Origin: Prorocentrum cordatum
Taxonomy: Eukaryota
Reading direction: 5' to 3'
Length of the DNA: 55,154 bases
NCBI GenBank assembly: GCA_963575745.1
Contig: CAUYUJ010000182.1
Coordinates: forward strand, 62,001 to 117,154
This document shows positions 11,621 to 39,286 of this stretch, in pieces; within the stretch, counting starts at the first letter, position 1; each line of letters begins with the position of its first letter. A program made the position numbers and the translations under genes. Below the pieces are notes generated by a model. It saw only the letters and a program-made list of their open reading frames with translations. It was not told the DNA's origin and ran no database searches.

Positions 11621-13973
11621 TGCGCTGCTCTTGACCTGCTCTTGACCTGCGCTGCTCTTGACCTGCGAAGTCGTTACTTGCATCTTAGCAGCGCGCGCGA
11701 AGCCCTGCAAGAACGTCACGTCGCCTTGGGCTAAGATTGAACAGCCACGCCCACTGCAATGACGCCTGGGCTACCAAGCGCCGGCTACGTTGAACGGGGC
11801 TTGGGCTATTCTAGAACTGCACGCGCAAAGGGCTGCGCCGTTTCGACATGTTCTTGATCGGCGCATGGACTGCGGCGGTGGCAGCAGTAGGCCATGGGGG
11901 GAGAGTGGTACGTCCGCCCTGAGCGGATGCTGTGGTATTCTGAAACTCAGAAGACGACGGCCTGACCCATCTTGCGCTAGCATGGGCGACTCGCGCGCTG
12001 CGCCGCAGGCAAAGACGGGCTGCCGGCCGCCGAGAGAGCAGCTGCTTTTATTCATCTGCGCTTGGTCAATTCTTGAGCTGTGATGCGCGCTCACAAATCA
12101 CCCTGTGCTACACGTGAGACAGAACGTGTACACTGCGCTTAGATGCCGACGCGCCGTGGCATGACCATCTGGTATGATACGCCCGCGCTACAAGCCCAAA
12201 TCATCATGGCCAATCATTGTGCCACTTTGGGGTTCGGGGCGGCAAGCACTTGTTCGGTTCCGACTGAGAGCAAGGCAACATGCCGCGGCGACTTAGCGTC
12301 GCGTAGCCATGCGCTCCAGCAAATTAGCGCTCCGTGGCACGGGCACGAGGTGCGCGCAGGCTCGTCTCTGCCATCGCTGGGCTATGGCGGGCCAAGTGCA
12401 TAGCCGCGCACGGCTTTCCCTGGGCGGCGATTGGTTTGCGCGATCGATTGCCCAAGCCACCTCGAAGCATTGATGAAGTACTGCTGTTCTGGCCCCGAGA
12501 GCGGGCCATGCTTGCCCGACAGCAGCATTCCCCACATTGCCGCGCTGCTGCGCTGAGGTTGGGGCTGCGAAGTCCTTAGGCCTAGGCCCTGCAGAAATGC
12601 AAACGACACGCGTCGAGTCCTACGCGCATGGCCACGCGAATCGCAAAGCCGTTCTGGACCTCACTTGGGCCAGACACCGACAGCGTTGAGCTGCGGGCGC
12701 AGGGGTGCCTGGCCCAAGTTTGCTGCTCCCATCGCATGCTCAGTCGTGCGGAGGAACAGCAAATTATCATTGAGTTTCGCCAGACGCATGTCGGCGATGC
12801 CCCGACGACGTCGCCTTGCGTGTTGTTCCTACTACAGTGGGTCGTCAGCGTTGTCTTCTTGGGCGAAGCCAGCGACAAGGCCTGTGCTTCCAGTGTTTGT
12901 CGACCTGGTTTTGCGGACGTTCGGGGTGCCCGATTCGCCACGTCGCGTGACCATCAGCATGCGCGACCGAAAAGGGTCGCGGCGCAGTTTACAGCGTCCA
13001 GCGATGGCCACATTCATTCGCTTCAGCGCAGCCCGCGCGAATCCACGACGTGACGCGCAATGCAGCGCGCGAGCAAGAGTACCTAGCTTTGCTTAAGCCA
13101 AGGCTAACATATCGTGCCGTAAACAGAAAGCTGTACAAACAAGTTAGCGGTATGCGCTTAACCAAATATGCGCTCTCACAATAAAGGCCACTTGCTGCAC
13201 GGACGCGCGTCGCACTTACAGGCGCCACGCGTATGGCGCATTCGAGGCACAGCGCAGCGCCAGTATACATTGCAGTGCATACAGCACGCGCGCTGGGCAT
13301 GAGCACACACCAACGAATATCACTGGCTGGCGAGACCCCCCCAACGGGCCTCTGCAAGGGTTCTGGGGCTCTCAAAGTTCACGTGGTTGCAAATCACATG
13401 TTGCTGTCGCTTGTCGGCGCTGCGCTACGTGTTATGTTTTCTCGAGGATGCATGCGCCAACGTTTCGCAATGATGGGGGTAGATTGTCTAAGCGTGTTGT
13501 TTCTGAGGGCTCTCGCAGTTGGTCTCTTTCAAGAAAGCCCTAAGGCGGCGCGTCCGCACTCTGACTTGGTTGCTCGAATGTAAAGAACACAAGCGGTTTC
13601 ACGCCGACTTCTCGCGACCACGGCGTTCGAGGCCGCGGCGCCACATCTGAAGACCCGATGCGGCGTTGAGGCCCCGACCGCCGCGTTGTCCGGGACGGAC
13701 GACGTGAAACCGCGAAAAAAGTGGTCAGTCGGTACCAGGGCGTTGTTGTTTTTTGTTTTCTCGTGGCCTATTGGGGTCCCTCGGGGCCTATCCCAAAAAC
13801 TGTTCGGCGGGAATCTCTGTCGTGCTGGGGGCTTGTTGTTTGGAAAGGCCGCAAGTTCCCCCCAGGGCTCAAGCGGACGGAAACCAATGAAATGTCCAGC
13901 GGCATGGCCGTCATTATGACCGCACGATCCGTGAGAGCAACATTTGGATTTCGAATTCTCCATTCGCTTCCGT

Positions 13974-13995
13974 ATCGTAGCCATTATGATTCAGG
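13974..13995 (+). other. Relic dinoflagellate spliced leader (DinoSL-like)
   Basis: ATCGTAGCCATTATGATTCAGG versus DCCGTAGCCATTTTGGCTCAAG, 17/22 ungapped, ending 76 nt before ATG 14072. Confidence 0.7.
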
Positions 13996-14071
13996 GTTGT
14001 TTTCTCGACGCACCTTGCGGCCCAGGGTGAGGTGCGCGTCTCTTCACTTAACGGAGCGCCCCTCAGCAACC

Positions 14072-16693
14072 ATGTCCGTCTCTGGAGACGACGTTGACGC
14101 AGCGGAGATGCGGCCTCCTACAGCCCCGCCAGTGGCTCGCAGGAGGAGTTCTGCCAGCGATCATGCTGCTCACACCAAGGCCGAGTTCGCAGGCGCATGC
14201 TACTTCTGCCAGGAGCCGTTGCGCCCTAAGGACAACACCAAGACATGGCACGGCTACGTCTTCCACGCTAGCCCGTGCTGGAACAACATTCGGGCTCGCC
14301 AGCGCGTCTGCTATACCACCCAGAACGGCCTCAGGCGCGAGCTCGAGTTGATGAACGGCGATCCTGAGAAGTGGCGCTGCGAGGCGATGCAGTTCGATCG
14401 GCCTCACTTGGATAGCAACCGATTGCATGCGCGCGAAGCTCTGACGAAGCAGCTTGCAGACTACGTGCTCGAGCTGCAGCGCATGGCTGAGCTGACCTTG
14501 ACTGACACCGCGAAGTACACCAAGGCACAGTACAAGAAGGCGAAGTTGAGGGGCATGGATTCGGACGAGGCGAGCGCCGACTGGGACAGTGAGTACGCAG
14601 AGCACCCGACGGTCAACAAGAAGGGCGAGACGTGCATTGCCATTGAGGGCCCCGAGGTGACCAGGAAGTTGGAGGGGACGGAGCGCCAGGGCGTGAAGCG
14701 AGGTCTGATCGAGTCGGCGCCTGGAACCTCCTCTTGGAGCTCAGGGGCGGCGTCTTCTGGTGGCGATGGGGCTAGTCCAGCTTCGGGGCGAACTGGCGGG
14801 AAGAGCGGCGCCAGCCTGACGGAGATGAACATCCAGCGCCTCACGGATGCATTCAATGAGATTAGAGAGGATGACGTTATCTCAGTGGTGAGCACGCGCG
14901 CTCGCGGTTCACGCGGCGCCCGCTTGGCGCCGCAGCTGCAGCCGTCGCAGGGCTTCCTGAAACAGAAGGATGACATCGGCACCACGCTTCGGGAGATCGT
15001 CTCAAGCATCGACGGCAGCAAGAAGGAGATCGGCGCGATCAAGAAGCTCCAGGCGCTGCACACCAAGGCCGTGGAGAAGAACATTGGGGTGGGGGGTCTA
15101 CCTCATGACGTCAGCACGGTGATCGGCGACCTCTCTCGCGTGAGCTCGTTGGCCAAAGGCGAGCTCGAGAAGATCGGCCCCGCCAAGGTGGATGCAGTTC
15201 CATCTCTCGAGGAGGCGCTAACGAACATCCAGAAGCAGAAGTCCACGTGCCTCGAGCAGGTGCAAACTCTCACGGATCAGTTGAATTTCAAGTTCCAGAA
15301 GGCTTGCTCTGAGCAGAGGTCCGAATACCAGAAGAACCGCTGGGAGAAGACGAAGATCCAACATATGCTCAGCAAAGGAGGCTTTGGCCTGAACTTGTCC
15401 AAGTGGGCGTCGGAGCAGATCCACAGCACGGATAGCTTTAGTGGCGCCAGCACGGATGGCATGATCTGTTTGTGTGAGAAGGCGCAGCTCAACCCCGAGG
15501 ACGGTTCCTTCGACGTGGCCAAGCTGGCTCTCTTCACGGGCGAGAGCCCCAACGAAGACTGCCAGTCGCATAGTGTGTGGTGGGGCATGAAGTTGCTGCT
15601 GGACGATGCCGCGAAGGTCTTCATCGACAGCAAGATCACCAGCATGAAGGCTGAGATGGCCAACCACCCGCTGTGGCCAGGTGCGATGGGGGGGGTGTCA
15701 GATTGCTTCGCAAACGTCGACGCGGTCGCCACCTTGGGCGCGCAGAGCACCAAGGAGAAGGGCTCGGAGTGCTGGCTCGTGTGTGCGAGAGCTGGCGTCT
15801 ATCGCATTGGTCCTCAGAGCGTGCCCATGCCAGGCACGCCATCGATCCTTGTCGCCATGGACAAGCCGCTCTTGGTCCACGCCGTGCGCATGAAGGACTT
15901 CTTGGGCCAGGGCATCGCCGTGAACAACTACGAGCAGTTCCTCGCGACAGCGACGGGAGCAGACATCATCAAGCAGTCAACGTTGGTGATCGTCAACCCA
16001 GGGGACAGCTTGTACGTTCCCACGGCGTGGTGGTGGTCCTTGACGGTGATCGCGGGGCTCCGCGACACGGTTGCATCAGACGAGTCGAGGGCGAAGGGGC
16101 CACCGAAGGCGAAGGCGAAGGCTTCCGCCACGGCTCCAGCTCCAGGTCAGGACACGGTCGGCATGGCCACGGTGGTGCCAGTCTACTCCCCGTCGCTTTG
16201 GGGCGCCGCCCAGAGCAATGAGCAGGGGGCGATCGTCGCTTTGAACAAGGCCCACTTCGACACGAAGAAGTGTCGTGCGATGTGGGATGAGCGTGCCGCG
16301 GCATTCGGACAAGTGTTTGCCACCTCGTCGGTGAGATGGAGCTTCGAACCTAACAAGGCCCATGGCTGCGCGCTCTGGGTCAACGCATGGCAGTCCCAGC
16401 TGGTGGCACGGACATTGATGCGAGGCCCTTGCAAGCTCAGGGTGGAGTGTTTCATCAGACATGGGCGCCCGAGATCCCTTCATCAGGGCGATCGCCGTGG
16501 CATTTCATTCATTGCCTCCCCCACCTCATCATGCCAATGTGTTGTTGCATATGTGGAGCTTCGCTCTATGCACCCTGATGTTTATAATACCTGGAGCTTC
16601 GCTCTCTGCACCCTGATGTTTACTATTCCCAGAGCTTCGCTCTCAGCACGCCTGGTGTTAAGTATATCTGGGCATTCGCTCTGTAAAGCTTGA
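14072..16693 (+). CDS. Intronless hypothetical protein: N-terminal Cys/His motif, predicted coiled-coil middle, C-terminal cupin/DSBH-like motif
   Basis: Long open frame with GC3-rich codons from ATG 14072 (MSVSGDD) to ~16330. Motifs CYFC..HASPC and IVNPGDSLYVPTAWW. The 13721-14071 extension and the tail after ~16330 look non-coding. Confidence 0.75.
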   Translation: MSVSGDDVDAAEMRPPTAPPVARRRSSASDHAAHTKAEFAGACYFCQEPLRPKDNTKTWHGYVFHASPCWNNIRARQRVCYTTQNGLRRELELMNGDPEKWRCEAMQFDRPHLDSNRLHAREALTKQLADYVLELQRMAELTLTDTAKYTKAQYKKAKLRGMDSDEASADWDSEYAEHPTVNKKGETCIAIEGPEVTRKLEGTERQGVKRGLIESAPGTSSWSSGAASSGGDGASPASGRTGGKSGASLTEMNIQRLTDAFNEIREDDVISVVSTRARGSRGARLAPQLQPSQGFLKQKDDIGTTLREIVSSIDGSKKEIGAIKKLQALHTKAVEKNIGVGGLPHDVSTVIGDLSRVSSLAKGELEKIGPAKVDAVPSLEEALTNIQKQKSTCLEQVQTLTDQLNFKFQKACSEQRSEYQKNRWEKTKIQHMLSKGGFGLNLSKWASEQIHSTDSFSGASTDGMICLCEKAQLNPEDGSFDVAKLALFTGESPNEDCQSHSVWWGMKLLLDDAAKVFIDSKITSMKAEMANHPLWPGAMGGVSDCFANVDAVATLGAQSTKEKGSECWLVCARAGVYRIGPQSVPMPGTPSILVAMDKPLLVHAVRMKDFLGQGIAVNNYEQFLATATGADIIKQSTLVIVNPGDSLYVPTAWWWSLTVIAGLRDTVASDESRAKGPPKAKAKASATAPAPGQDTVGMATVVPVYSPSLWGAAQSNEQGAIVALNKAHFDTKKCRAMWDERAAAFGQVFATSSVRWSFEPNKAHGCALWVNAWQSQLVARTLMRGPCKLRVECFIRHGRPRSLHQGDRRGISFIASPTSSCQCVVAYVELRSMHPDVYNTWSFALCTLMFTIPRASLSARLVLSISGHSLCKA
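16555..16644. repeat. 38-bp tandem repeat, ~2.3 copies
   Basis: GAGCTTCGCTCT(A/C)TGCACCCTGATGTTTA units start at 16555 and 16593, with a partial copy at 16631. Confidence 0.9.
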
Positions 16694-17725
16694 TTGCATG
16701 TCGAATGGCATTCTGGTGCGCCATGCCATTCGACATCCATGTGGCGGGTTGTTGGGTCCGCGTGGCCTTTCAAGGGTGCCTTCGGGGCCCGCGCCCTCGC
16801 GAGCAAGGGATGGGGCGGGAGGGCGGGCGCGATATAAGACAACTACGTTGGGATCTGGGGAGGCTGGGGGCGAGGGGCACAGAGGGGCACGGGGTAAAAG
16901 GTCGGAAGAACGAACGAGGATGGAGGCATGATACTTGGGCGGGAGGGCGGAACGATCGCCCGTAGGACGTGCGCTGGAGGCGCGGGGGTGGCGGGGGAGG
17001 GCGGTCGCGCGGGAGGGGGGCGCGCAGCCGTCACTGACGGCTGTCGTGATCGAGTTCGGCTTTGCCGCTGCGGCATCCGAGCCGTTTACTGGACGAACCG
17101 CCCGCGTGCACTCATGGTCCAGCGACGCGCCCGTCGCGCGGAACGAGCGGCCAGATGCTGTGGCCGTGTCACAACGTATGGCCGTCGTTCACGCGCCGCG
17201 GGCGCATTGGCGGACTTTGGGTGCGAGCGCGGGGTGCGTCCAGCAAACGACGCACGTGCCGAGGTGGCGGCGCCAGACTCGATCGCGAGTGCTGAAAGTG
17301 AATGTTGTCCTGCGTGGCGCGCTTGAGGGTGCTTACGTTGACAACGCGGCCGCGCTGCGCGTCCCATTAGAGCGCGATCTCGCGAGCGCGGGCCTGCGTC
17401 AAAAGGCGTTCGGATGTTCGATGCGCTGATCTTGGCGTTGCGGGTTCGTTCGCCTCGCCGCGCAATCGCAAATTGACGACTCGTTCGGGCGTGGGCGCGC
17501 GATGCGTGCGCGTCACCACTTGCGAGTAGCATTGCGTCGGCGCGTGCGCTATTCGATGAAAACGTGAATGAATTAGAACATAAAAAACAACGAACACACC
17601 GCCGAACTATGCGGCTTGGCAGTGTGTTGTTTTTTTCCGTAGAAGTTACATGATGTGTTGAGCGTTTCTGTAGCGGATGGTTGCTTGCCAGCGCTTTGAC
17701 CGTAAGTCCGTGCCTTGCCATCCGT

Positions 17726-17890
17726 GATAACAGGTTTGCCAGAAACATGGTTGCCCGAAAACGGGTTTGCCAGATAACAGGGTTCACCACTCATCACATT
17801 TTCCGAAATACCGACGTGCAGATGACACATGTGCCAGATAGTATGTATCCCGTAATAACAGATTCGTCATATAACAGATTTGCCAGATAA
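17726..17890 (+). promoter_or_regulatory. Cluster of ATAACAGRTTTGCCAGATAA-type boxes upstream of the nuclease gene
   Basis: Copies at ~17726, 17766, 17832 and 17871; the same motif recurs at 19508-19551. The regulatory role is inference. Confidence 0.45.
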
Positions 17891-17993
17891 TTGATGATAG
17901 ATTGACGCGCGTACAATTGCAAAACATGTTTAGATGGGTTGCCTTGTATATGATTGCCGTTGGCTCAATCTTGTATTCGTGAGATCTTACTGA

Positions 17994-18059
17994 CGTGGCT
18001 CAGCTTTGCTGGCCTGTTCACTTTCCGCGTCTTGGCGTGGCTCAGCTTTGCTGGCCTGT
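17994..18059 (+). promoter_or_regulatory. Two copies of a conserved 24-nt 5' hairpin motif (CGTGGCTCAGC-TTT-GCTGGCCTGT)
   Basis: Identical copies at 17994-18017 and 18036-18059, upstream of ATG 18115. Confidence 0.6.
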
Positions 18060-18114
18060 CCACTATCAGTAACTATAGGACCAGCTTTGCTGTCCTATCG
18101 TCTCGTTGTCATCA

Positions 18115-19318
18115 ATGGCCGCTCCTGTCTCTCGCCAGATCCTGGTGTGTTTCAACCACTTGCTGCCCGACATCGCGGCGCGCGGTGTGCCGCTGGAGAG
18201 GCTCGGCTTCAAGCCTGGCGACTGGGGCAGCGGAGTCGCCTCGGCTGTCGCCGTCGACGCGTGGGACTTGGCCGCGCCGCTGGAATACGGATTCAGAGCG
18301 ACCGATCGCTGCGCCAAGGTCCTTTCCGTGGCGGTGGCGGCGTTGAGTCGCCCAGTTCAGTGGCCGACCATGAATGCCATCGCCCAGCCGCAGTTGGGCC
18401 GCCGAACCGTTAAGAGCTGTCCCCGGTGGGCGCAGTCGTGCGCGTGCGCAGTGCCCGCCGGGGGGGGGGCGCGAACAGTGACCGCGCTATCCAGCCAGCC
18501 CCGTCGCTCGAGCTTGGCGGTCGTCCTGAGCGACGAGAACGCTGCGGGCCGCGCCGGAGGCTGCTCTCCTGCACGAGTTTCTTGTGTCGCACGGTGCCTG
18601 CGACGCCGAGATCTGCGCCGAGGTGAAGGCCACTGCGAGAGCGGCTCCCCGCCTGGCATGCCTGATGGAGAGTTTATCCCTCTCGGATCCGGAGATCGTA
18701 GAGAAATGACGCCTGAACAAGGAAGAGGCGGCTAGGCGGGGCACCTGGATGCACTGGACGTTCGAGGCCCACCTCAACCGCGTTCCGGTACCCCGCGACG
18801 CCGTGGAGTTCCAGTTATTCCTGAAATACTTGGGCGCGCTGAGAGGTCTGACGGCTTTCCGCGCAGAGTGGGCCATATTCGCCGGGCACGAGGGGCTTGC
18901 TGGGTCAATCGATTTCGTGGCTCGAGACTCCGCGGGCAGCTTGTACATATACGATTGGAAGCGGGCGAAGAATTTACGTTCAAAGTACACGAACCCGTTG
19001 CAGAATATGAAGTTTCCATTGAGCCGATGGCCAGACTGCCAGGGAAACTATTACCGGGTGCAGCTCAACATTTACAGGTGGATGCTGGAACGTTACTACG
19101 GCGCCCGCGTGGCTGCGATGCATGTGGTCTGCCTGCATCCGGACAACGGCGACCAGCCATTCGTGGACGACGTGCCGGTGATCCCAGAGATCGAGGAGCC
19201 CATGGCCATTCAACGCACGAGGTCCCGAGAGTTGCGAGCCATGGCATCGGAAGACGCTAGCGAGATGGACCCTCTGGGCGGCTGGCCGCGGCCAGTCGTA
19301 GCGGCGCGCTTGCCTTAA
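18115..19318 (+). pseudogene. PD-(D/E)XK (RecB/Cas4-superfamily-like) nuclease, disrupted
   Basis: RGTWMH just 5' of ORF 18749, then FRAEW, GSIDFV..IYDWKR and YRVQLNIY. An in-frame TGA lies at 18707-18709 (EIVEK*RLNKEEAARRGTWMH) and a frameshift near 18680. The 5' extent is uncertain. Confidence 0.8.
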
Positions 19319-19507
19319 TGCGTGCGCACCGCGGCCAATTTCGATCGTGCGTTTCGCCGGCCCGCAGTGGAGGTCGCGCCCTGGCGAGGCCGTTGCGATT
19401 GCGCGCCGCCTTCATGAGGTGCCGTTGCAGCGGCGCTCAAGCTCTGCGGAAGTAGTGGTGCGCTAACGCAAGATAGAAAACAGTATTTGGTTGTTCGGAT
19501 AAATGCG

Positions 19508-19551
19508 TTTGCCAGATAACATTTTCGCGACGTAACAGGTTTTCCAGATAA
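19508..19551 (+). promoter_or_regulatory. Second cluster of GCCAGATAA-type boxes
   Basis: TTTGCCAGATAAC (19508-19520) and TAACAGGTTTTCCAGATAA (19533-19551). Confidence 0.45.
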
Positions 19552-19641
19552 TGCGAATTTCAGCAGAGGCCTGTGTCACAAGTAGTACCAGCACGGGTAT
19601 ATGCTGCCGTCGTCGTCGCAGTAGTACTCAGCACAGAGCAA

Positions 19642-19664
19642 ACCGTAGCTGTTTTTCTCTCAAG
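19642..19664 (+). other. Relic DinoSL-like sequence
   Basis: ACCGTAGCTGTTTTTCTCTCAAG keeps the SL 5' octamer ACCGTAGC, the T-run and the 3' CTCAAG; it lies upstream of ATG 19801. Confidence 0.65.
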
Positions 19665-19678
19665 GACCATCGCTTTGG

Positions 19679-19702
19679 CGTGGCTCGGCTTTGCCGGCCT
19701 GT
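19679..19702 (+). promoter_or_regulatory. Conserved 5' hairpin motif, variant CGTGGCTCGGC-TTT-GCCGGCCTGT
   Basis: Same motif as 17994 with a compensatory A-T to G-C stem change. Confidence 0.6.
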
Positions 19703-19800
19703 CATTTAACTATCTGCATCGCTAGCCCTTGCCGGCCTGCTGCGCTGCCTCGTGGAGGATCGGCATTGCTGTCCTGTGAGTTGTCCTGCACTTTGGCGCA

Positions 19801-20595
19801 ATGGCCACCGACGCGCAGCGCGCTGCCGGCCCCCCGTTTCTGAGCTCGCAGTCCCCTGAGCTGAGCGACCCCACGCCGCGCGGGAGGCCTCGCCAGCGGC
19901 GCGCTTACTCTGGCGCCCGCTCGCTGACGCCGGCGCGCAAGAAGCATCGACTGTCCTCGCGGGCTGCGCGCGCGGCTGCAGCGCGAACCCCTTCATCGTC
20001 GCCGGAGAGAGACGACGCCGCTGACATCGAGGCTTTCGCGCTGATGGTATCAAGGGTCTCAGATGAAACATTAAATTCTATCATGTCATGCTTCCCTGCC
20101 GTGCGGAGACGGACATTAGCGCGTCGTTTCGCACGGGATCAACAGATTCGCCAAGACAGAACGTTTATACTCGTGAGGCCGGTCGGTTCGAGCAGGCCGC
20201 GGGCCTCGCGTGGCCCGCGCGGCGCCGGAGTGCCCGGAGCCCTTGCTGTTGTGCCTCGCTGGTTTCAGCCTGCCAACGCAGAACTTGCCTCGGCGACAGC
20301 CCCGAGCCTAGTACACGATCGCTGTTTCATTTGCGGGTTGGATGACGGCGACGTCGACGGCATCGGCCACTATCTGGAGGGGTGCGTGGCCACGGTGAGA
20401 TCATTTCCGTTCCCAAATGTTACCCTTTTGCGCGCGACGACCTCCGCGCGGGCCATGTTGGCGCAGCGGTTGGAACCTCGCGGCGACGCATTCGCGTGCG
20501 CGCGGTGCAGCGGGGTCTGCGTCGCCTGGGAAGACACCCTGAACATAGATCTCGCTTCCGATATGCTCGGACTGCACAGGCGACAAGCGGTTTGA
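19801..20595 (+). CDS. Hypothetical 264-aa protein, Arg/Ser/Pro-rich N-terminus, Cys/His-rich C-terminus
   Basis: ATG-started ORF after an SL relic and the hairpin motif; CFICG..GHY..C and CARC motifs. Possibly degenerate. Confidence 0.4.
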   Translation: MATDAQRAAGPPFLSSQSPELSDPTPRGRPRQRRAYSGARSLTPARKKHRLSSRAARAAAARTPSSSPERDDAADIEAFALMVSRVSDETLNSIMSCFPAVRRRTLARRFARDQQIRQDRTFILVRPVGSSRPRASRGPRGAGVPGALAVVPRWFQPANAELASATAPSLVHDRCFICGLDDGDVDGIGHYLEGCVATVRSFPFPNVTLLRATTSARAMLAQRLEPRGDAFACARCSGVCVAWEDTLNIDLASDMLGLHRRQAV

Positions 20596-20903
20596 AAACA
20601 GGGGCGCGAGCCGACTCGCGCCCGCGATTGGACTCGGGGAGACGCGGCGGCGCCGGCGCCATTGCGCGGGCCCCCGTCGAGCTCGGGCCGCGATTTTCGA
20701 TCGCCACTTTGCGCCGACAAAAGCGCAACATCTCCATCATATCTAGATTCTCTTCCCGCCTTCCCATGTGTCAAACGTGGCGTGGGGCTTTCAAGTCGCT
20801 CGATATCCCCACTAGTCGAGCTCTTACACGTTCGACGTCAGTGCCACTGATGGATCGTTGCTTATCTCTCCTCATCGCTCTCCGGCTCAAGACACGCGTT
20901 TCC

Positions 20904-20971
20904 CGTGGGTCGGCTTTGCTGCCCTGTGCTTTCTTTGTCGTGCCACCTGTGGGTCGGCTTTGCCGCCCTGT
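20904..20971 (+). promoter_or_regulatory. Two more copies of the 5' hairpin motif (GTGGGTCGGC-TTT-GCYGCCCTGT)
   Basis: Copies at 20904-20927 and 20948-20971, preceded by GGCTCAAG (SL 3' end) at 20884-20891 and followed by ATG 21005. Confidence 0.6.
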
Positions 20972-21004
20972 TTTTTGTTCTACCACCTCCCCGCACTATC
21001 TCAC

Positions 21005-23251
21005 ATGCGCGGCGCACTCGCTCAGCAGGGGCAGGACGCTGCAAGGCTCGCGCCGGCGCCGACTCGGAGACGGATCAGAGGCAAGAGCGCGGCGGACGAC
21101 GTCGGCGAGAGCTGGGTGTGCCTCGCGGCCGAGCAGCGCGAGCCCCACGAGCTCGCGGACGTGGGCTCGGCGGAGACACCTGAATCCCCGAGCGGCGATG
21201 AGGGTGAGACAGTGGTGCGGACAGAGTTGTTCGACTGCCTGGAAAATGAAGTCAAGAGCTACTCTGCAGGGGTGAAGCTCCTGCGCCCCAAGCGGGACAG
21301 CGAGGGCGTGCAGTTGAAATTTGCTTGCGGTTTATGTCCGTTCCGGTCGTTCTCGACGCAGGTACTCCTGGCCGCGCACGTCTCGAAGTACCACCTCAGA
21401 AAGACGCGCTTCGTGGCCTCTGGCACGAAGCAGTTCAATGTCGTGTGCGCGTTGTTCGACAACGACCGGCTTCTGCGAGCTCCAACGGGGAACCTTCTGA
21501 GGCGGTCTGCAGCGGTCCTGCGGGAGACAGTATCTCCTGCCGTTCATCGCGGACAGAATGCCATTGACAAGGATATTGTCCTAGTTCTCGACGACGACGG
21601 GCCCTCGTATCAGAACAAGGCAGCGGTGGGGCAGAATCTCGCGTGCAGACGAGCGGGGTACACGTGCTATACCCGTGGCTTCGCCGATATCCTGTTGCAG
21701 GAGTCCTTGCGCCACCATGGGCGCGCGCGCCCGGCGATGCTGCGGGCGTGCGCTCGCGTCGCGGAGCAGGGCTCCGAGTTGAGCAGCATGCTGCCGACCG
21801 CCGTTGAGCACTGGCTAGAACTTATGGAAGACGTGTTCAACTGCGCGCACGTAGAGAGGCGCAGCGCTGCGTTGATGGAAGAATGCCACCGACGCAAGGA
21901 ATTCCTCCACATCTCCATGGACGCCACTATCCGCATTCTGCGCAACGTCAAGGGCCAGGCAGACTATCGGTCTGCACAAGCAGTGCGCGATGCTGCACCC
22001 GTGCCAGACGTGGACGCCAAGTGCCGCGTTCTGACTCTCGCGGGCCGGACGGGGGCGGCGCTCGGCGTTTTTTTGACGAAGGACGAGGGGGCTGATGAAA
22101 TAGCTGGAGCCCTTGCAGCTCGTTGGTCGGCGGCGTGCAGATCGCAGACGGCGTCCGTCGCCAGTGACCAGCCGAGCAGCGCGCTACTCCGTGTCTTGCG
22201 AGGTTCATGTTTTCCCAATTTATCGGTCTTGAGCCTCGACCCTGTTCATCTGCCCATCACGTACGAGGAGACGCACTGGAGGAAAAAGACAGTGGGATCG
22301 CGATTATTGCGGATACTAGTGGCCAAATTTACGAAGGTGGATTGCACGCTGCCCGCGCACTACTGGGGGGCGCCGTTCGACGGGACGAACGCCCCGAACC
22401 TGCAGCCAATAGAGGAGCGCGCGCGAGCACAGATACTCGATCATTCACTGGTGAAGTCGCGAGCTCAATACGTTATCGACAACGTGAACGCCGAGCTGCC
22501 ATGGAAAACGACGCACGAGTTCATCGAAGCTATCGCCGCGCTGAGCGCATTGGTTCCAGAAGAGCTTGCTCGCCGCACTCGCGTGAATAACGTTCAACTC
22601 AAGAGATTGCTTTACAATGCGACCGCCCCAGCCCGCATGCAATGGTTCTTCAATAATCAGCGATTCAGGCATTCCTTGCCGGCGGCGCGCTCAGCCCTGT
22701 TGGGGTCTGGCACGTCCGTCAACAAACCCTTCGACCACGAAATCAACGCGTGGTTTCGCAACCAGGGAGACTTCTACGCTTCGACGGCGGAGCTGCAACT
22801 TAGGATTGGCTTCTTGGGCAAGCTGCAAGCCCACAATTGCGCGCTGTATTCGCCGACGCTGCGGCAGCTGCGACAGGCCAACGTGCTATCGCGAAGCATT
22901 ATGGCATGGGCTTTCCCCGTGGATGATTGGAAGAGTTACTGTGCGCTCCTGGAGCAGCGCGGCGCCGACGTCCTGGCGCCCGCGCGGCTTCCGCTCCGCG
23001 AAGCCCGACAGAGAGTCGCACGGCTGATTGCCGAACGCGCCGCGTGCGCTCGGGGAAAGCCAGCGGCGCGCGAGGCCGGGACTGCCGGGCGGCGCGGTGC
23101 TCAGAAGAAACCCGCTGCAAGGGCGCTCTTGGACAGTCTGCGCGATCGCAGAGTGCCTAGGATCAAGAGAACAGCTTTCACTTTGAAACGCAAGCCCGCG
23201 TCGCGCGGCGCTGCTGGCGAAGCCCCCGCCGCGCGCGCTCGCCAGCGGTAG
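21005..23251 (+). CDS. C2H2 zinc finger + DDE transposase-like protein with DxxH signature (MULE/ISL3/KDZ-like), possibly catalytically dead
   Basis: CGLCPF..HVSKYH; ISMDAT (D at 21920), ASDQP (D at 22166), LDPVH (22238-22249); SGTSVNKPFDHEIN where E would be expected (AAA at 22724). Basic RRRIRGK and KKPAA termini. Start chosen at the first ATG after the hairpins. Confidence 0.65.
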   Translation: MRGALAQQGQDAARLAPAPTRRRIRGKSAADDVGESWVCLAAEQREPHELADVGSAETPESPSGDEGETVVRTELFDCLENEVKSYSAGVKLLRPKRDSEGVQLKFACGLCPFRSFSTQVLLAAHVSKYHLRKTRFVASGTKQFNVVCALFDNDRLLRAPTGNLLRRSAAVLRETVSPAVHRGQNAIDKDIVLVLDDDGPSYQNKAAVGQNLACRRAGYTCYTRGFADILLQESLRHHGRARPAMLRACARVAEQGSELSSMLPTAVEHWLELMEDVFNCAHVERRSAALMEECHRRKEFLHISMDATIRILRNVKGQADYRSAQAVRDAAPVPDVDAKCRVLTLAGRTGAALGVFLTKDEGADEIAGALAARWSAACRSQTASVASDQPSSALLRVLRGSCFPNLSVLSLDPVHLPITYEETHWRKKTVGSRLLRILVAKFTKVDCTLPAHYWGAPFDGTNAPNLQPIEERARAQILDHSLVKSRAQYVIDNVNAELPWKTTHEFIEAIAALSALVPEELARRTRVNNVQLKRLLYNATAPARMQWFFNNQRFRHSLPAARSALLGSGTSVNKPFDHEINAWFRNQGDFYASTAELQLRIGFLGKLQAHNCALYSPTLRQLRQANVLSRSIMAWAFPVDDWKSYCALLEQRGADVLAPARLPLREARQRVARLIAERAACARGKPAAREAGTAGRRGAQKKPAARALLDSLRDRRVPRIKRTAFTLKRKPASRGAAGEAPAARARQR

Positions 23252-23499: not shown

Positions 23500-23792
23500 C
23501 GTATCTATCGTCAAAGAATGGCAGTGCACGGCCGTATCTATTCGTATTGCATTTTGTCAGAACGGATGTTGTTGGCTGTGCTCTCGGAGCGAACAAGATC
23601 CATGATATTGGTCGACGCAATGAGGAATGGGATGGGGAGAGTGGGAAGCAGTATCGATGAGGAGCGAAGAGACGAGTGACAACGACAAAACGACGAGGAG
23701 TAGGTTGGATAAGAACGACGAAACGAGATTTCAAACAGAACCGGGTAGGAACAGGGATTCAGAGGAAGTGGATAGCAACGAGGAGGAGGAGG

Positions 23793-23828
<36 letters not shown>

Positions 23829-24310
23829 AGGAGGAGGCTGAAGACGAGGACGAGAACGAGGAAGATGCTCAAATGGAAAGTGAAAGGGGTGGTGCGGGGT
23901 GCGGGCGAGGAGGTTTTAGGAGTACTGGCGGGGAGGTTGACGACGACGATGCGTTGAGGCAGGAGGAGAGGGGCCCAGGGAACGGAGGAAGGAAAAAAGA
24001 AGGAGAGCAATTACGACGCGGAGGACGAGGACAATGAGTAATGTGCATTGTCTTCCCTGTTCGTGGTCATTGAGCGGCCCAGGTCTGGCAGTGGAGACAT
24101 GGCGCCGTATCTATCCGTACCTGATTTTGGTCGACATGTTTTACAGCGGTGGGCGCCATACTGAACCGTATCTAAACATACATCTATATATGGCCGTATA
24201 TAACAATGTCCCTGTATCTAAATTTACACAACACGTGCCTCCCGAATCGAAATGCGTAAGAAGTCGTATCCAAACGTGTATATGTTTGAAACAAAGCTAC
24301 TCGTATCTAA
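23500..24310. repeat. Dispersed CGTATCTA-type boxes in AT-richer DNA, interrupted by a purine-rich GAG tract
   Basis: Copies at ~23500, 23533, 24106, 24167, 24213, 24265 and 24302. Confidence 0.7.
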
Positions 24311-24689: not shown

Positions 24690-25080
24690 TGACGACGATG
24701 ACGCTGACGACCACGACAACGATGATGATTGTGATGATGACGAGGACATTGATGATGCTGATGATGCTGATCGTGTTGGTGATGCAGACGATGATGCGGA
24801 TGCTGATACTGGCGATGGTGATGATAATGCTGGTTGTGTTGATGGTGATGATTGTTTTGATGAAAATGCTGCTGGTGATGATGACGGGTGGTGATGATGT
24901 TGATGGTGATGTTGAGGTTGATGGTGATGTGGTGATGATGTTGACGATTATGGTGATGATGTTGATGCTGCTGATGGTGGTGAATATTAGGAGGATGTTG
25001 CTGGTGCTGTTGATGCTTATTCAGCGTATGATGATGAATGTGATTCGGATGATGGTTCTGTTGCGCCGGGATGCTGAATG
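24690..25080. repeat. Degenerate (GAT)n microsatellite
   Basis: Direct reading. Confidence 0.9.
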
Positions 25081-38235: not shown

Positions 38236-39286
38236 TGTCGCTCTCGCTTTCGCTCGTCGTCGTCGTCGTCGTAGTCGCTGTCGTCGTGGTCAGTCCCCTG
38301 TCCGTCCCTCTTGGGGTCGGGCTGCCGCCGATCAGCGCTGCCGTTGGCTAGGCCGACGGTCCGCGGCCGCCCCGCCGCTCGCCTGGGCCCAGCCTGCAGG
38401 GAAGGAACATGTACCCTCCAAAAGGGGCACGATCGAAGACGAAGAGTGCGGGTATCGGCGAGGGTTCGGGAAATACACGTTGAATGCCGTTCGAGCAGGT
38501 AAGAGCGAACAGTTTTACACTGATTGTTGTTGTTGTTATTGTGATTGTTGTTGCTGCTGTTGTTGTTGTTATTGTTGCTGCTGCTGCATGTTGTTAGGGG
38601 GTCCAAAGAGGCAGTTTGAGCACGAGTATTTCCGTGAGTAAGAACGGATACTAGCCCCGAGGCGGGCATTTCAGCTGAAAAGCGCAACCTGCACTGGTGA
38701 CGGGGGATGAACAATACTTTTTTCCAACAGTGAGAATTCAACAGCCACGGCAAGAGCAACAGCAGCGGAAACATCCAACACAGCAAGCAGAATCCTCTGG
38801 ACGGAACCCCACCTGTGCCCCACCAGCGGAACCACAGCTCGGCCCCCTCACTCCGGTTTATGTCTGTGCAGTCCCAGACATGCGACGTCTTATTTTTTCA
38901 ATACGCGGTCCCCAGAAGTCCCGACCCTGTCCCCAGGCCGGCTTTCGCGTCCCATGTCGTTTCCTGATGGTCCCCAGGCCCGGCGAGGGCCCCGGTGGCC
39001 GAGAGAGGGGCGAGACGCCCCCCGCCGCGATGCTGTTGTATTCGATCAGGAGGGGGTACGTGCAGCTGCTTCTCCCCCCCCCATGGGCGGCGGAGGCCCC
39101 TCCCCCACCCCGATGCCGTAGGCACGGGCGGGGGCCGCCGGGAGCCCGACGCCAAGGGCCCCCCCGCCGCGCCGCTCGGGCGGAACTGCCGCCCTGGCGG
39201 GCGGGGCCCGCCCGACAGCGGGGGGTGCTCTCAGGGACGTTCCCTTTGGGGGCCCCAGCAGGGCACCACCACCGCCACCTCCGTTC

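Follow-up and report, generated by a model that had tools for sequence, protein, structure and literature searches.

What do a nuclease-like sequence, a cysteine-rich open reading frame (ORF) and a putative transposase share, that each of them should be preceded by several copies of the same short inverted repeat? This question is raised by a stretch of 55,154 nucleotides (nt) from the genome of the dinoflagellate Prorocentrum cordatum (GenBank assembly GCA_963575745.1, contig CAUYUJ010000182.1, positions 62,001 to 117,154 of the forward strand), which we refer to in its full length as the window. An initial annotation, made from the letters alone, had described five copies of the repeat as a structured cis-regulatory RNA in the 5' leaders of three unrelated genes. 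Here, we describe the repeat as an RNA hairpin that is probably under selection, assign the genes that it precedes to a single multi-copy genetic element, and propose, more tentatively, that this element itself encodes the hairpin's binding partner, a putative relative of the histone stem-loop-binding protein (SLBP).

Dinoflagellates regulate their genes mainly after transcription, and transcription itself is barely regulated. To our knowledge, almost no specific pair of a cis-element and an RNA-binding protein has been described in these organisms. If the proposed pair is real, it would constitute a defined small RNA-protein switch in a dinoflagellate, and an SLBP-family protein that acts on the 5' leaders of non-histone mRNAs. 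It would also mean that a mobile element carries its own translational control, which could explain a self-limited dosage in giant, repeat-rich genomes. Finally, a hairpin of 18 nt and a domain of about 80 residues would make a candidate orthogonal tool for transgene control in algae that are hard to engineer.

Pairing and conservation of the hairpins

We scanned both strands of the window with the pattern GGSTCRGCTTTGCYGSCC and compared the result with 100 shuffles. The pattern matches exactly five times, always on the plus strand (at 17997, 18039, 19682, 20907 and 20951), where 0.07 matches are expected by chance, and none of the shuffles had five or more. This confirms the five copies that had been annotated, albeit with start coordinates 3 nt lower, as these included the flank. 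Likewise, all five are preceded by GT and followed by TGT, and they differ by the substitutions that had been described, namely changes of A-T and of C-G to G-C, and a single G.T wobble in the copy at 20907. What had been missed are two further intact copies, hairpins 1c and 2c, which were found by a looser scan and a repeat search and carry new changes that preserve pairing, as well as one decayed unit (Table 1). The window thus holds seven intact hairpins and one decayed unit in three leaders, in which the tandem units are spaced 38-58 nt.

When the units are folded singly, seven of the eight give one hairpin, with a lower stem of 3 base pairs (bp), one bulged base, an upper stem of 4 bp and a loop of 3 nt. 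Their folding energies range from -8.7 to -15.8 kcal/mol (-10.8 kcal/mol with z -3.7 for hairpin 1c), and the decayed unit at 19716 folds otherwise. For the analysis of covariation, we aligned 11 intact copies, comprising the seven of the window and four of a marine metagenome contig (L032) that is introduced below. Across these copies, every cell of the 7-bp stem is paired (77/77), whereas only 28.6-62.3% of cells pair in a control in which the 3' partner was slid by 1-3 columns. Neither the observed pairing nor the covariation score was reached in any of 500 shuffles.

Five of the seven stem pairs are invariant. Pair 3/16 occurs in three states (C-G in four copies, G-C in four and A-U in three), which are related by double transversions without a wobble intermediate, and pair 6/14 is G-C in five copies, A-U in four and G.U in two. 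The G at the second stem position is the same in all 11 copies and always paired with C. The bulge is kept throughout as well, being a T in ten copies and a C in one; a loose end in sequencing run X4 adds a twelfth copy, in which it is an A. A possible outer extension of the stem, with C-G and G.U pairs and a second bulged U, has three unpaired cells and no double change. We further built a covariance model from the same 11 copies and searched it in the window and L032. It scores its own copies at 31.7-42.9 bits and everything else at 12.9 bits or less, among 31 matches listed at E<=10.

A comparison between leaders indicates which of their parts are conserved. The leader of the 748-residue ORF in the window is homologous to that of another gene on L032, gene B, though the two genes differ. 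Between these leaders, the hairpins with 2-nt flanks are identical at 43 of 44 positions and the motif GGCTCAAG, which precedes them, at 8 of 8 (together 51/52), whereas the remaining parts agree at only 35 of 82 positions, including a 13-nt indel (Fisher p = 2e-12). Upstream of GGCTCAAG, the identity is 6/24; at the other end, the similarity continues through the ATG into the first codons.

On these grounds, the motif is best explained as a sense-strand RNA hairpin with a 7-bp stem, one bulge after the third pair and a triloop of the YUU type, and we consider it probable, judging from sequence comparison, that the hairpins are a selected RNA element of 5' leaders. The structured cis-regulatory RNA that had been postulated is thereby upheld as far as the compensatory change (77/77, with three states at pair 3/16) and the conservation contrast (51/52 versus 35/82) are concerned; pair 6/14, by contrast, can be explained by CpG decay.

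A multi-copy element and its SLBP-like gene

If the hairpins act as RNA, they should be found within transcripts, and traces of spliced leaders bear on this point. We made gapped local alignments to the 22-nt consensus of the dinoflagellate spliced leader (DinoSL), with random 45-nt segments of the window as a null (99th percentile 16, maximum 24). All five leaders, three in the window and two on L032, contain a spliced-leader-like relic 14-28 nt 5' of the first hairpin. The relics of the window are listed in Table 1, and those of L032 score 16 and 14. Gapped alignment was needed for this, as an ungapped scan for DinoSL with up to three mismatches found no relic. Relic spliced leaders are a known feature of dinoflagellate genomes and a sign of genes that have passed through processed mRNA (excerpt of PMC5585692). 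Since the relics lie just 5' of the hairpins, the latter would have followed the leader junction of the former mRNA at a distance of about 15-28 nt, and thus apparently have been in the 5' ends of such mRNAs.

On their other side, the hairpins are close to start codons. From the first G of hairpins 1a, 1b, 2a, 3a and 3b, it is 118, 76, 119, 98 and 54 nt to the next ATG (at 18115, 19801 or 21005), and the 3' end of the last hairpin is 19, 26 and 36 nt away from the ATG in the three leaders. With the relics on one side and the ATGs on the other, the position of the motif is consistent with an RNA element in the 5' leaders of different ORFs, as the initial annotation had it.

To find relatives, we left the variable positions of the pattern free and searched public viral and metagenome contigs. 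The metagenome contigs yielded 34 loci, three of which keep both variable pairs. L032 is the sole true relative among them, as the only one with the T bulge and several copies; the other 33 are single chance matches. Twelve matches in viral contigs were also dismissed as chance, being single-copy, without the T bulge in any case (0/12) and with both pairs in 3/12, where about 1.7 are expected. The viral contigs contained no relatives of the nuclease or of the 748-residue protein either, when scanned with both. On its minus strand, L032 carries in a row a partial gene A, gene B with 266 codons, and an intact homologue of the nuclease, which matches the exonuclease family PHROG 298 (E 4.9e-10). 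The leader of gene B is composed of GGCTCAAG, a spacer and two hairpins of the sequence GGGTCGGCTTTGCCGCCC, that of the nuclease of GGCTCAGG, a spacer, GGCTCGGCATTGCCGGCC and then GGATCAGCATTGCTGTCC. A leader with relic and hairpins accordingly heads at least five coding sequences: the fragment at 18115, the cysteine-rich ORF, the 748-residue ORF, gene B and the intact nuclease.

To see how these genes are arranged elsewhere, contigs of four sequencing runs were aligned to positions 17400-21400 of the window. From run X1, the likely source run, 131 contigs align at 80-100% identity, and the sequence is therefore multi-copy. Contigs of run X2, a seawater metagenome, extend over 18540-21400 with the order retained and an identity of about 95%. 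Furthermore, gene models of P. cordatum combine several of the genes, namely gene B, the nuclease and the 748-residue ORF in P0012, and the nuclease with the C-terminal part of gene B in P0014; these genes therefore travel together. Judging from the homologues, contigs and gene models, the hairpin genes are neighbours in one multi-copy, multi-gene mobile or selfish element of Prorocentrum-like dinoflagellates. They are not the independent loci that the expression 'three unrelated genes' implies.

Of interest for the present question is gene B, the N-terminus of which matches the Pfam family SLBP_RNA_bind (PF15247) with 22.9 bits (E = 8.6e-5, profile positions 37-65 of 70). P0013, a relative with 51% identity to gene B, reaches 24.1 bits over profile positions 8-65. 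In a phmmer search of 1.84 billion representative proteins (E<=1e-3), gene B had 59 matches, of which 55 align to residues ~14-78; the relatives include a protein of Karenia brevis as well as one of a marine transcriptome. SLBP_RNA_bind is the sole Pfam family in 50 of the 59, with 27 bits or more in 30 of these, while eight have no family and one, a fused nuclease model, has only PDDEXK_1. The single gene B sequence gave no match in the PDB. When 22 short relatives were combined in a profile, with a fragment of gene B as the lead sequence, SLBP chains were all that it matched there (4/4, best E = 0.002), with TPDP...SKRxWE (SKRQWE in the HMM alignment) aligned to TPNK...SRRSWD of SLBP, so that the TP motif is shared. 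Residues P51, K60, R61, W63 and E64 are invariant in the alignments of the gene B family, among them the Arg that is aligned to human Arg181 (SKR versus SRR).

Structural comparison points to the same family. An AF2 model of gene B has predicted local distance difference test (pLDDT) values of 91-98 at residues 10-80 and low confidence elsewhere. With this model, Foldseek ranks Drosophila SLBP first (4tux_B, prob 0.99, E 0.3, TM 0.67 by target length) and human SLBP fourth. The first two ranks of VIA-align, an independent alignment against all representative structures, are likewise SLBP structures, 4qoz_C (Z 8.7, rmsd 3.9, 70 aligned residues) and 4tuw_A (Z 8.3, rmsd 3.3, 65 aligned residues), ahead of the next match at Z 6.4. 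Each of these lines is modest, but in combination they make it likely that the N-terminus of gene B is a divergent SLBP-type domain. In human SLBP, base-specific recognition is confined to one contact of Arg181 with the G in position 2 of the stem, a base that binding requires (excerpt of PMC10388802). The invariant G at this position of the hairpins (11/11) and the invariant aligned Arg fit this recognition rule, which argues for gene B as a hairpin binder.

In the mechanism that we propose, intact copies of the element would make the SLBP-like protein, which would bind the hairpins on all mRNAs of the element, its own included, and thereby set their translation or stability together. The hairpins would sit between spliced leader and AUG, in two to three tandem copies per leader. 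Because of this proximity to cap and AUG, the likeliest mode would be a steric block of ribosome loading; alternatively, activation via an initiation factor would be possible by analogy with trypanosome SLBP2. In our estimation, the chance that the hairpins serve as operators in the sense RNA, with the SLBP-like protein of the element as their binding partner, is little short of even. We infer the transcription of the leaders, the binding of protein to hairpin and the direction of its effect. Somewhat more speculatively, the element may be a complete and portable post-transcriptional regulon, in which an SLBP-family protein of its own is paired with matching bulged operators in the 5' leader of every gene, that of the regulator included. 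The SLBP fold may then, as we would suggest with the same caution, have been re-used for control through 5' leaders rather than for histone 3' ends.

A number of observations weigh against this proposal. On the RNA side, the 11 copies stem from two closely related sources and represent three hairpin classes, so that covariation amounts to about two independent double substitutions, at pair 3/16. The series A-T / G.T / G-C at pair 6/14 is what decay of CpG to TpG/CpA on both arms would produce without selection; A.C mismatches at this pair are absent where about 1.8 are expected, a difference that is not significant. In folds of whole leaders, only one of five minimum-energy structures has all hairpins local (z -0.4 to -2.7), and identical tandem copies cross-pair in three of five. 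In public gene models of P. cordatum, moreover, the ORFs are fused and the leaders are annotated as introns, an alternative reading of these sequences. On the protein side, gene B stays below the Pfam gathering score (22.9 versus a cut-off of 27), the E-values of the fold search are weak (0.3-1.4), and Z-values of 8-9 are not decisive for a small helical domain. The window copy has no SLBP-like gene according to tblastn and a motif search by regular expression, so that the link between protein and hairpin rests on other copies of the element. Lastly, the element hairpin departs from the known SLBP target: it has 7 bp with a bulge and a 3-nt loop, against 6 bp and a 4-nt loop in the histone hairpin, and it is flanked by CGU without the A-rich 5' flank of the latter. 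The Rfam model Histone3 (RF00032) had no match at E<=10, neither in 3.8 kb nor in a 121-nt search over three hairpins.

Some of these points would suit a reading in which the hairpins function in the 5' leader without the SLBP-like protein of the element, be it through a host factor, as a mark or enhancer of the trans-splice acceptor 14-28 nt upstream, or simply by slowing down scanning through their thermodynamic stability. What was found on structure, conservation and position of the RNA fits such a role equally well, the window copy keeps seven intact hairpins without a gene B, and the hairpin is not of the histone type by the Rfam model. We nevertheless regard this role as rather unlikely, as the presence of a hairpin-binding-type domain within the same element, in a gene that is itself preceded by two hairpins, would then be a coincidence, as would the agreement of the invariant stem G and the invariant Arg with the SLBP recognition rule.

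We give less credit to the possibility that the repeats act as double-stranded DNA, either as promoter or enhancer units or as sites for a DNA-binding protein of the element (the 748-residue protein with its C2H2-like finger, or a transposase), with the palindrome reflecting a dimeric binder. Promoter repeats do often take the form seen here, with tandem units (38-58 nt) immediately 5' of ORFs; repeats of a second family, with units of 16 nt, are found at a greater distance, and dinoflagellate promoters are poorly known. However, compensatory change is unexpected in the binding site of a single protein, and a bulge that is always kept makes the half-sites unequal. All 11 copies are in sense orientation relative to the downstream ORF, and the two copies with G.T would turn into A.C mismatches if read on the opposite strand. 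In addition, the hairpins are located 3' of the spliced-leader relics, i.e. inside former transcripts.

It is improbable that the hairpins have no function at all and are part of a leader module that was copied by recombination and tandem duplication, which would look conserved through recent gene conversion and have arms matched by template switching at quasi-palindromes. Such a history would account for copies that are more alike within a leader than between leaders and for a leader similarity that reaches the first codons, as in copied modules; CpG decay explains pair 6/14, and the unit at 19716 has in fact decayed. Yet conversion would homogenise the spacers, which agree at only 35/82 positions with a 13-nt indel next to hairpins that agree at 43/44, and template switching would remove the bulge that 11 of 11 copies retain.

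Finally, the hairpins are very unlikely to be 3'-end signals of the upstream gene with SLBP-dependent processing like the histone stem-loop, for although the canonical SLBP target is a 3'-terminal hairpin (excerpts of PMC6723414 and PMC10388802) and the hairpins do follow ORFs of the element, they are found 180-460 nt past the upstream stop codons, with spliced-leader relics in between, are missing downstream of the last gene of the series (stop 23251), and keep a tight spacing of 19-36 nt to the next ATG, together with which they have been copied.

Genes and repeats of the window copy

The features of the window copy and gene B of L032 are compiled in Table 1.

Table 1. Hairpin units, spliced-leader relics and genes of the element. 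Positions refer to the window unless L032 is given; bits are scores of the covariance model.
Feature	Position	Strand	Description
Spliced-leader 3'-part remnant	17960..17968	+	TTGGCTCAA; score 18 (0.7% of null as high); 28 nt 5' of hairpin 1a
Hairpin 1a	17997..18014	+	GGCTCAGC-TTT-GCTGGCC; variable pairs C-G and A-T; T bulge; 40.6 bits
Hairpin 1b	18039..18056	+	same sequence as 1a, 42 nt 3' of 1a; 40.9 bits
Hairpin 1c	18078..18095	+	GGACCAGCTTTGCTGTCC = GGACCAGC-TTT-GCTGTCC; A-T at variable pair; bulged C; 31.7 bits
206-residue ORF	18115..18735	+	starts 19 nt after hairpin 1c; first ~140 codons unrelated to nuclease, then out-of-frame overlap with nuclease remnant
PD-(D/E)XK nuclease remnant, 5'-truncated	18542..19318	+	in-frame stop at 18707-18709, where relatives have TGG
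Relic spliced leader	19642..19664	+	accgtagctgtttttctctcaag; score 24 = null maximum, null fraction 0.00025; 17 nt 5' of hairpin 2a
Hairpin 2a	19682..19699	+	GGCTCGGC-TTT-GCCGGCC; -15.8 kcal/mol; 42.9 bits
Decayed repeat unit	19716..19739	+	3' arm GCCGGCC kept, hairpin lost; 79% identity to unit; z -0.43
Hairpin 2c	19757..19774	+	GGATCGGCATTGCTGTCC = GGATCGGC-ATT-GCTGTCC; A-T and G.T; loop ATT; 34.5 bits
264-residue cysteine-rich ORF	19801..20595	+	5 homologues at 58-83% identity; covered by run X2 at ~95% identity
Last 8 nt of spliced leader	20884..20891	+	GGCTCAAG; score 16; 15 nt 5' of hairpin 3a; identical in homologous L032 leader
Hairpin 3a	20907..20924	+	GGGTCGGC-TTT-GCTGCCC; G-C and G.T; 41.9 bits
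Hairpin 3b	20951..20968	+	GGGTCGGC-TTT-GCCGCCC; G-C and G-C; 42.6 bits
748-residue ORF	21005..23251	+	C2H2-like finger; multi-copy in P. cordatum; 10 homologues, 4 of them named Prorocentrum cordatum at 61-88% identity
Gene B, 266 residues	L032:1615-2412	-	first ~80 residues a likely divergent SLBP-type domain; two hairpins in own leader

The first array had been thought to precede a nuclease gene. Membership of the PD-(D/E)XK family is confirmed, as the window segment 18749-19315 reaches the gathering score of PDDEXK_1 (PF12705) with 25.9 bits versus a cut-off of 22, and as the remnant is 90% identical in amino acids to the nuclease of L032 from 18542 on (window 18542-18943). The gene itself, however, is a truncated pseudogene with a stop codon, and the ORF that the first leader heads is another one, of 206 residues. 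Only the last 260 codons of the nuclease are present, joined out of frame to a foreign 5' part, and the frame is open only from 18710; position 18709 is a G in other copies. In runs X1, X2 and X4, loose ends at 18540/18541 go on as L032 does from this point, and it is therefore the window copy that is rearranged. The joint near 18520-18541 is a deletion or recombination that fused the foreign 5' part to the 3' part of the nuclease. Close to it, and within the 206-residue ORF, the plus strand has a run of ten G (18461-18470).

The cysteine-rich ORF of 264 residues belongs to no Pfam family, but its homologues mark it as a real conserved gene of the element. The 748-residue ORF had been labelled a transposase, a label that we could not confirm, since the protein has neither a Pfam family nor a sequence match in the PDB. 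A protein atlas based on a language model places it at a score of 0.87 to the cluster of PF20700, a Mutator-like transposase, which is a lead only; its AF2 model has a mean pLDDT of 54 and led to no meaningful match in either Foldseek or VIA-align. Its identification as the transposase of a Mutator-like element remains only a lead as well.

Gene A (L032:2986-5022, minus strand), a partial ORF of at least 679 residues on the 5' side of the SLBP-like gene, belongs to no family of Pfam or PHROG. In the protein atlas, its neighbours (at 0.95) are clusters without a name, for which the few members on record come from phages or bacteria; this hints at a virus-like gene in the element. The remainder of gene B (residues 81-266; L032:1615-2172, minus strand) is cysteine-rich and shares a conserved DGNC motif with P0013. 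This motif would suggest a protease of the OTU type, an idea that was dropped as there is no Pfam match at E<=10 and the model is of low confidence in this part. Weak matches to an SLBP-like gene at 38885-39043 of the window (E 0.03) were also discarded; they fall into an Arg/Pro-rich frame without the SLBP motif.

Other repeats are found around the hairpin arrays. Seven copies of a 16-nt unit (~AACAGGTTTGCCAGAT) lie on the plus strand at 17728-17892 and 19501-19553, and their core TTTGCCAGATAA occurs four times versus 0.17 expected. They are located 100-250 nt upstream of two class-I hairpin leaders and are absent before the 748-residue ORF. The core CCAGATAAC is also present in another copy of the element, in a loose end of run X1 at 17854. 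These repeats may be promoter or protein-binding repeats of the element. Further upstream, at 17056-17067 (plus strand), TCGGCTTTGCCG reproduces exactly the loop and the inner stem of the hairpin but lacks its outer stem, and scores 12.9 bits with the covariance model. This sequence may be what is left of another decayed leader, within the 1.3 kb that precede the first array.

The element is flanked on its 5' side by an ORF of 933 residues (13892-16693). A spliced-leader relic with a score of 24 is found at 13976-13993 (plus strand), about 80 nt 5' of an in-frame ATG of this ORF at 14072, and no hairpin motif follows it; the ORF looks like an ordinary retroposed gene outside the hairpin system. 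At its 3' end, it contains 3.4 tandem copies of a 38-nt unit, TGGAGCTTCGCTCTCTGCACCCTGATGTTTACTATACC (16554-16682, plus strand), with a period like that of the hairpins and an unrelated sequence. Just 3' of the element, there are long trinucleotide-like repeat tracts of the GAG/GAT type and a run of N that represents an assembly gap (~23780-23862, 24700-25060 and ~25190).

Comparison with known systems

The repeat had been described as not belonging to a recognized family, and this holds for Rfam: no family matches at its gathering score anywhere in the window, and only rows at chance level appear at E<=10 in the searches of 3.8 kb and 121 nt. Resemblances of the hairpin to the tRNA A-box or to the Alu domain of the signal recognition particle were considered and found no support in Rfam.

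The known system to which our proposal appeals is the histone stem-loop with SLBP (PF15247; 4L8R, 4QOZ, 4TUW, 4TUX). Both hairpins are short and G-C-rich, start with GG, end with CC and have a U-rich loop; in the element, a protein with a probable SLBP fold is encoded alongside, and the G at stem position 2 and the equivalent of Arg181 are invariant. Still, the element hairpin falls outside the histone stem-loop family. Apart from the differences in stem, loop and flanks given above, it is present in two to three copies in the 5' leaders of non-histone genes, whereas the histone stem-loop is a single copy at the 3' end of the mRNA. Gene B, for its part, differs from SLBP in scoring below the Pfam cut-off and in having an unrelated C-terminal part. 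In dinoflagellates, histone mRNAs are reportedly polyadenylated and lack the stem-loop, whereas Perkinsus has stem-loops (excerpt of PMC6723414).

We found no such system in the literature on SLBP in dinoflagellates, with bioRxiv supplements and subscription journals outside the search, and nothing of this kind among the matches listed for the combination of SLBP, transposon, 5' UTR (untranslated region) and hairpin. The term SLBP does not appear in a 2026 review of RNA-binding proteins in dinoflagellates, nor do hairpin or stem-loop in the P. cordatum genome paper.

The relics provide a second point of comparison. In 2008, Slamovits and Keeling reportedly described relic spliced leaders of retroposed dinoflagellate genes under the term 'mRNA recycling'. 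The hairpin genes resemble such genes in that a worn 22-nt spliced leader directly precedes the 5' UTR of each. They differ in that such relics are not known to be followed by a shared structured motif, whereas here five coding sequences within one element share leaders with relic and hairpins.

As for the proposed function, the operators of the phage MS2 and PP7 coat proteins, and the iron-responsive elements that are bound by iron regulatory proteins in ferritin 5' UTRs, are hairpins whose bound protein blocks translation. They share with the present case a small bulged hairpin near the start of the mRNA and a dedicated protein, which in the phages comes from the same selfish genome. Their proteins have other folds, however, and there is no sequence similarity; moreover, the element has tandem copies on several genes, and their operator role is proposed here. 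That the SLBP fold can serve cap-dependent control is illustrated by trypanosome SLBP2, which binds the cap-binding protein eIF4E2 (excerpt of PMC7139794) and is thus an SLBP-family protein of a protist tied to translation initiation, albeit a host protein that acts on histone 3' stem-loops. What the present analysis would add to these systems is that the fuller copies of a dinoflagellate element appear to encode an SLBP-like gene next to the hairpins, and thus a candidate pair of an operator and its binding protein.

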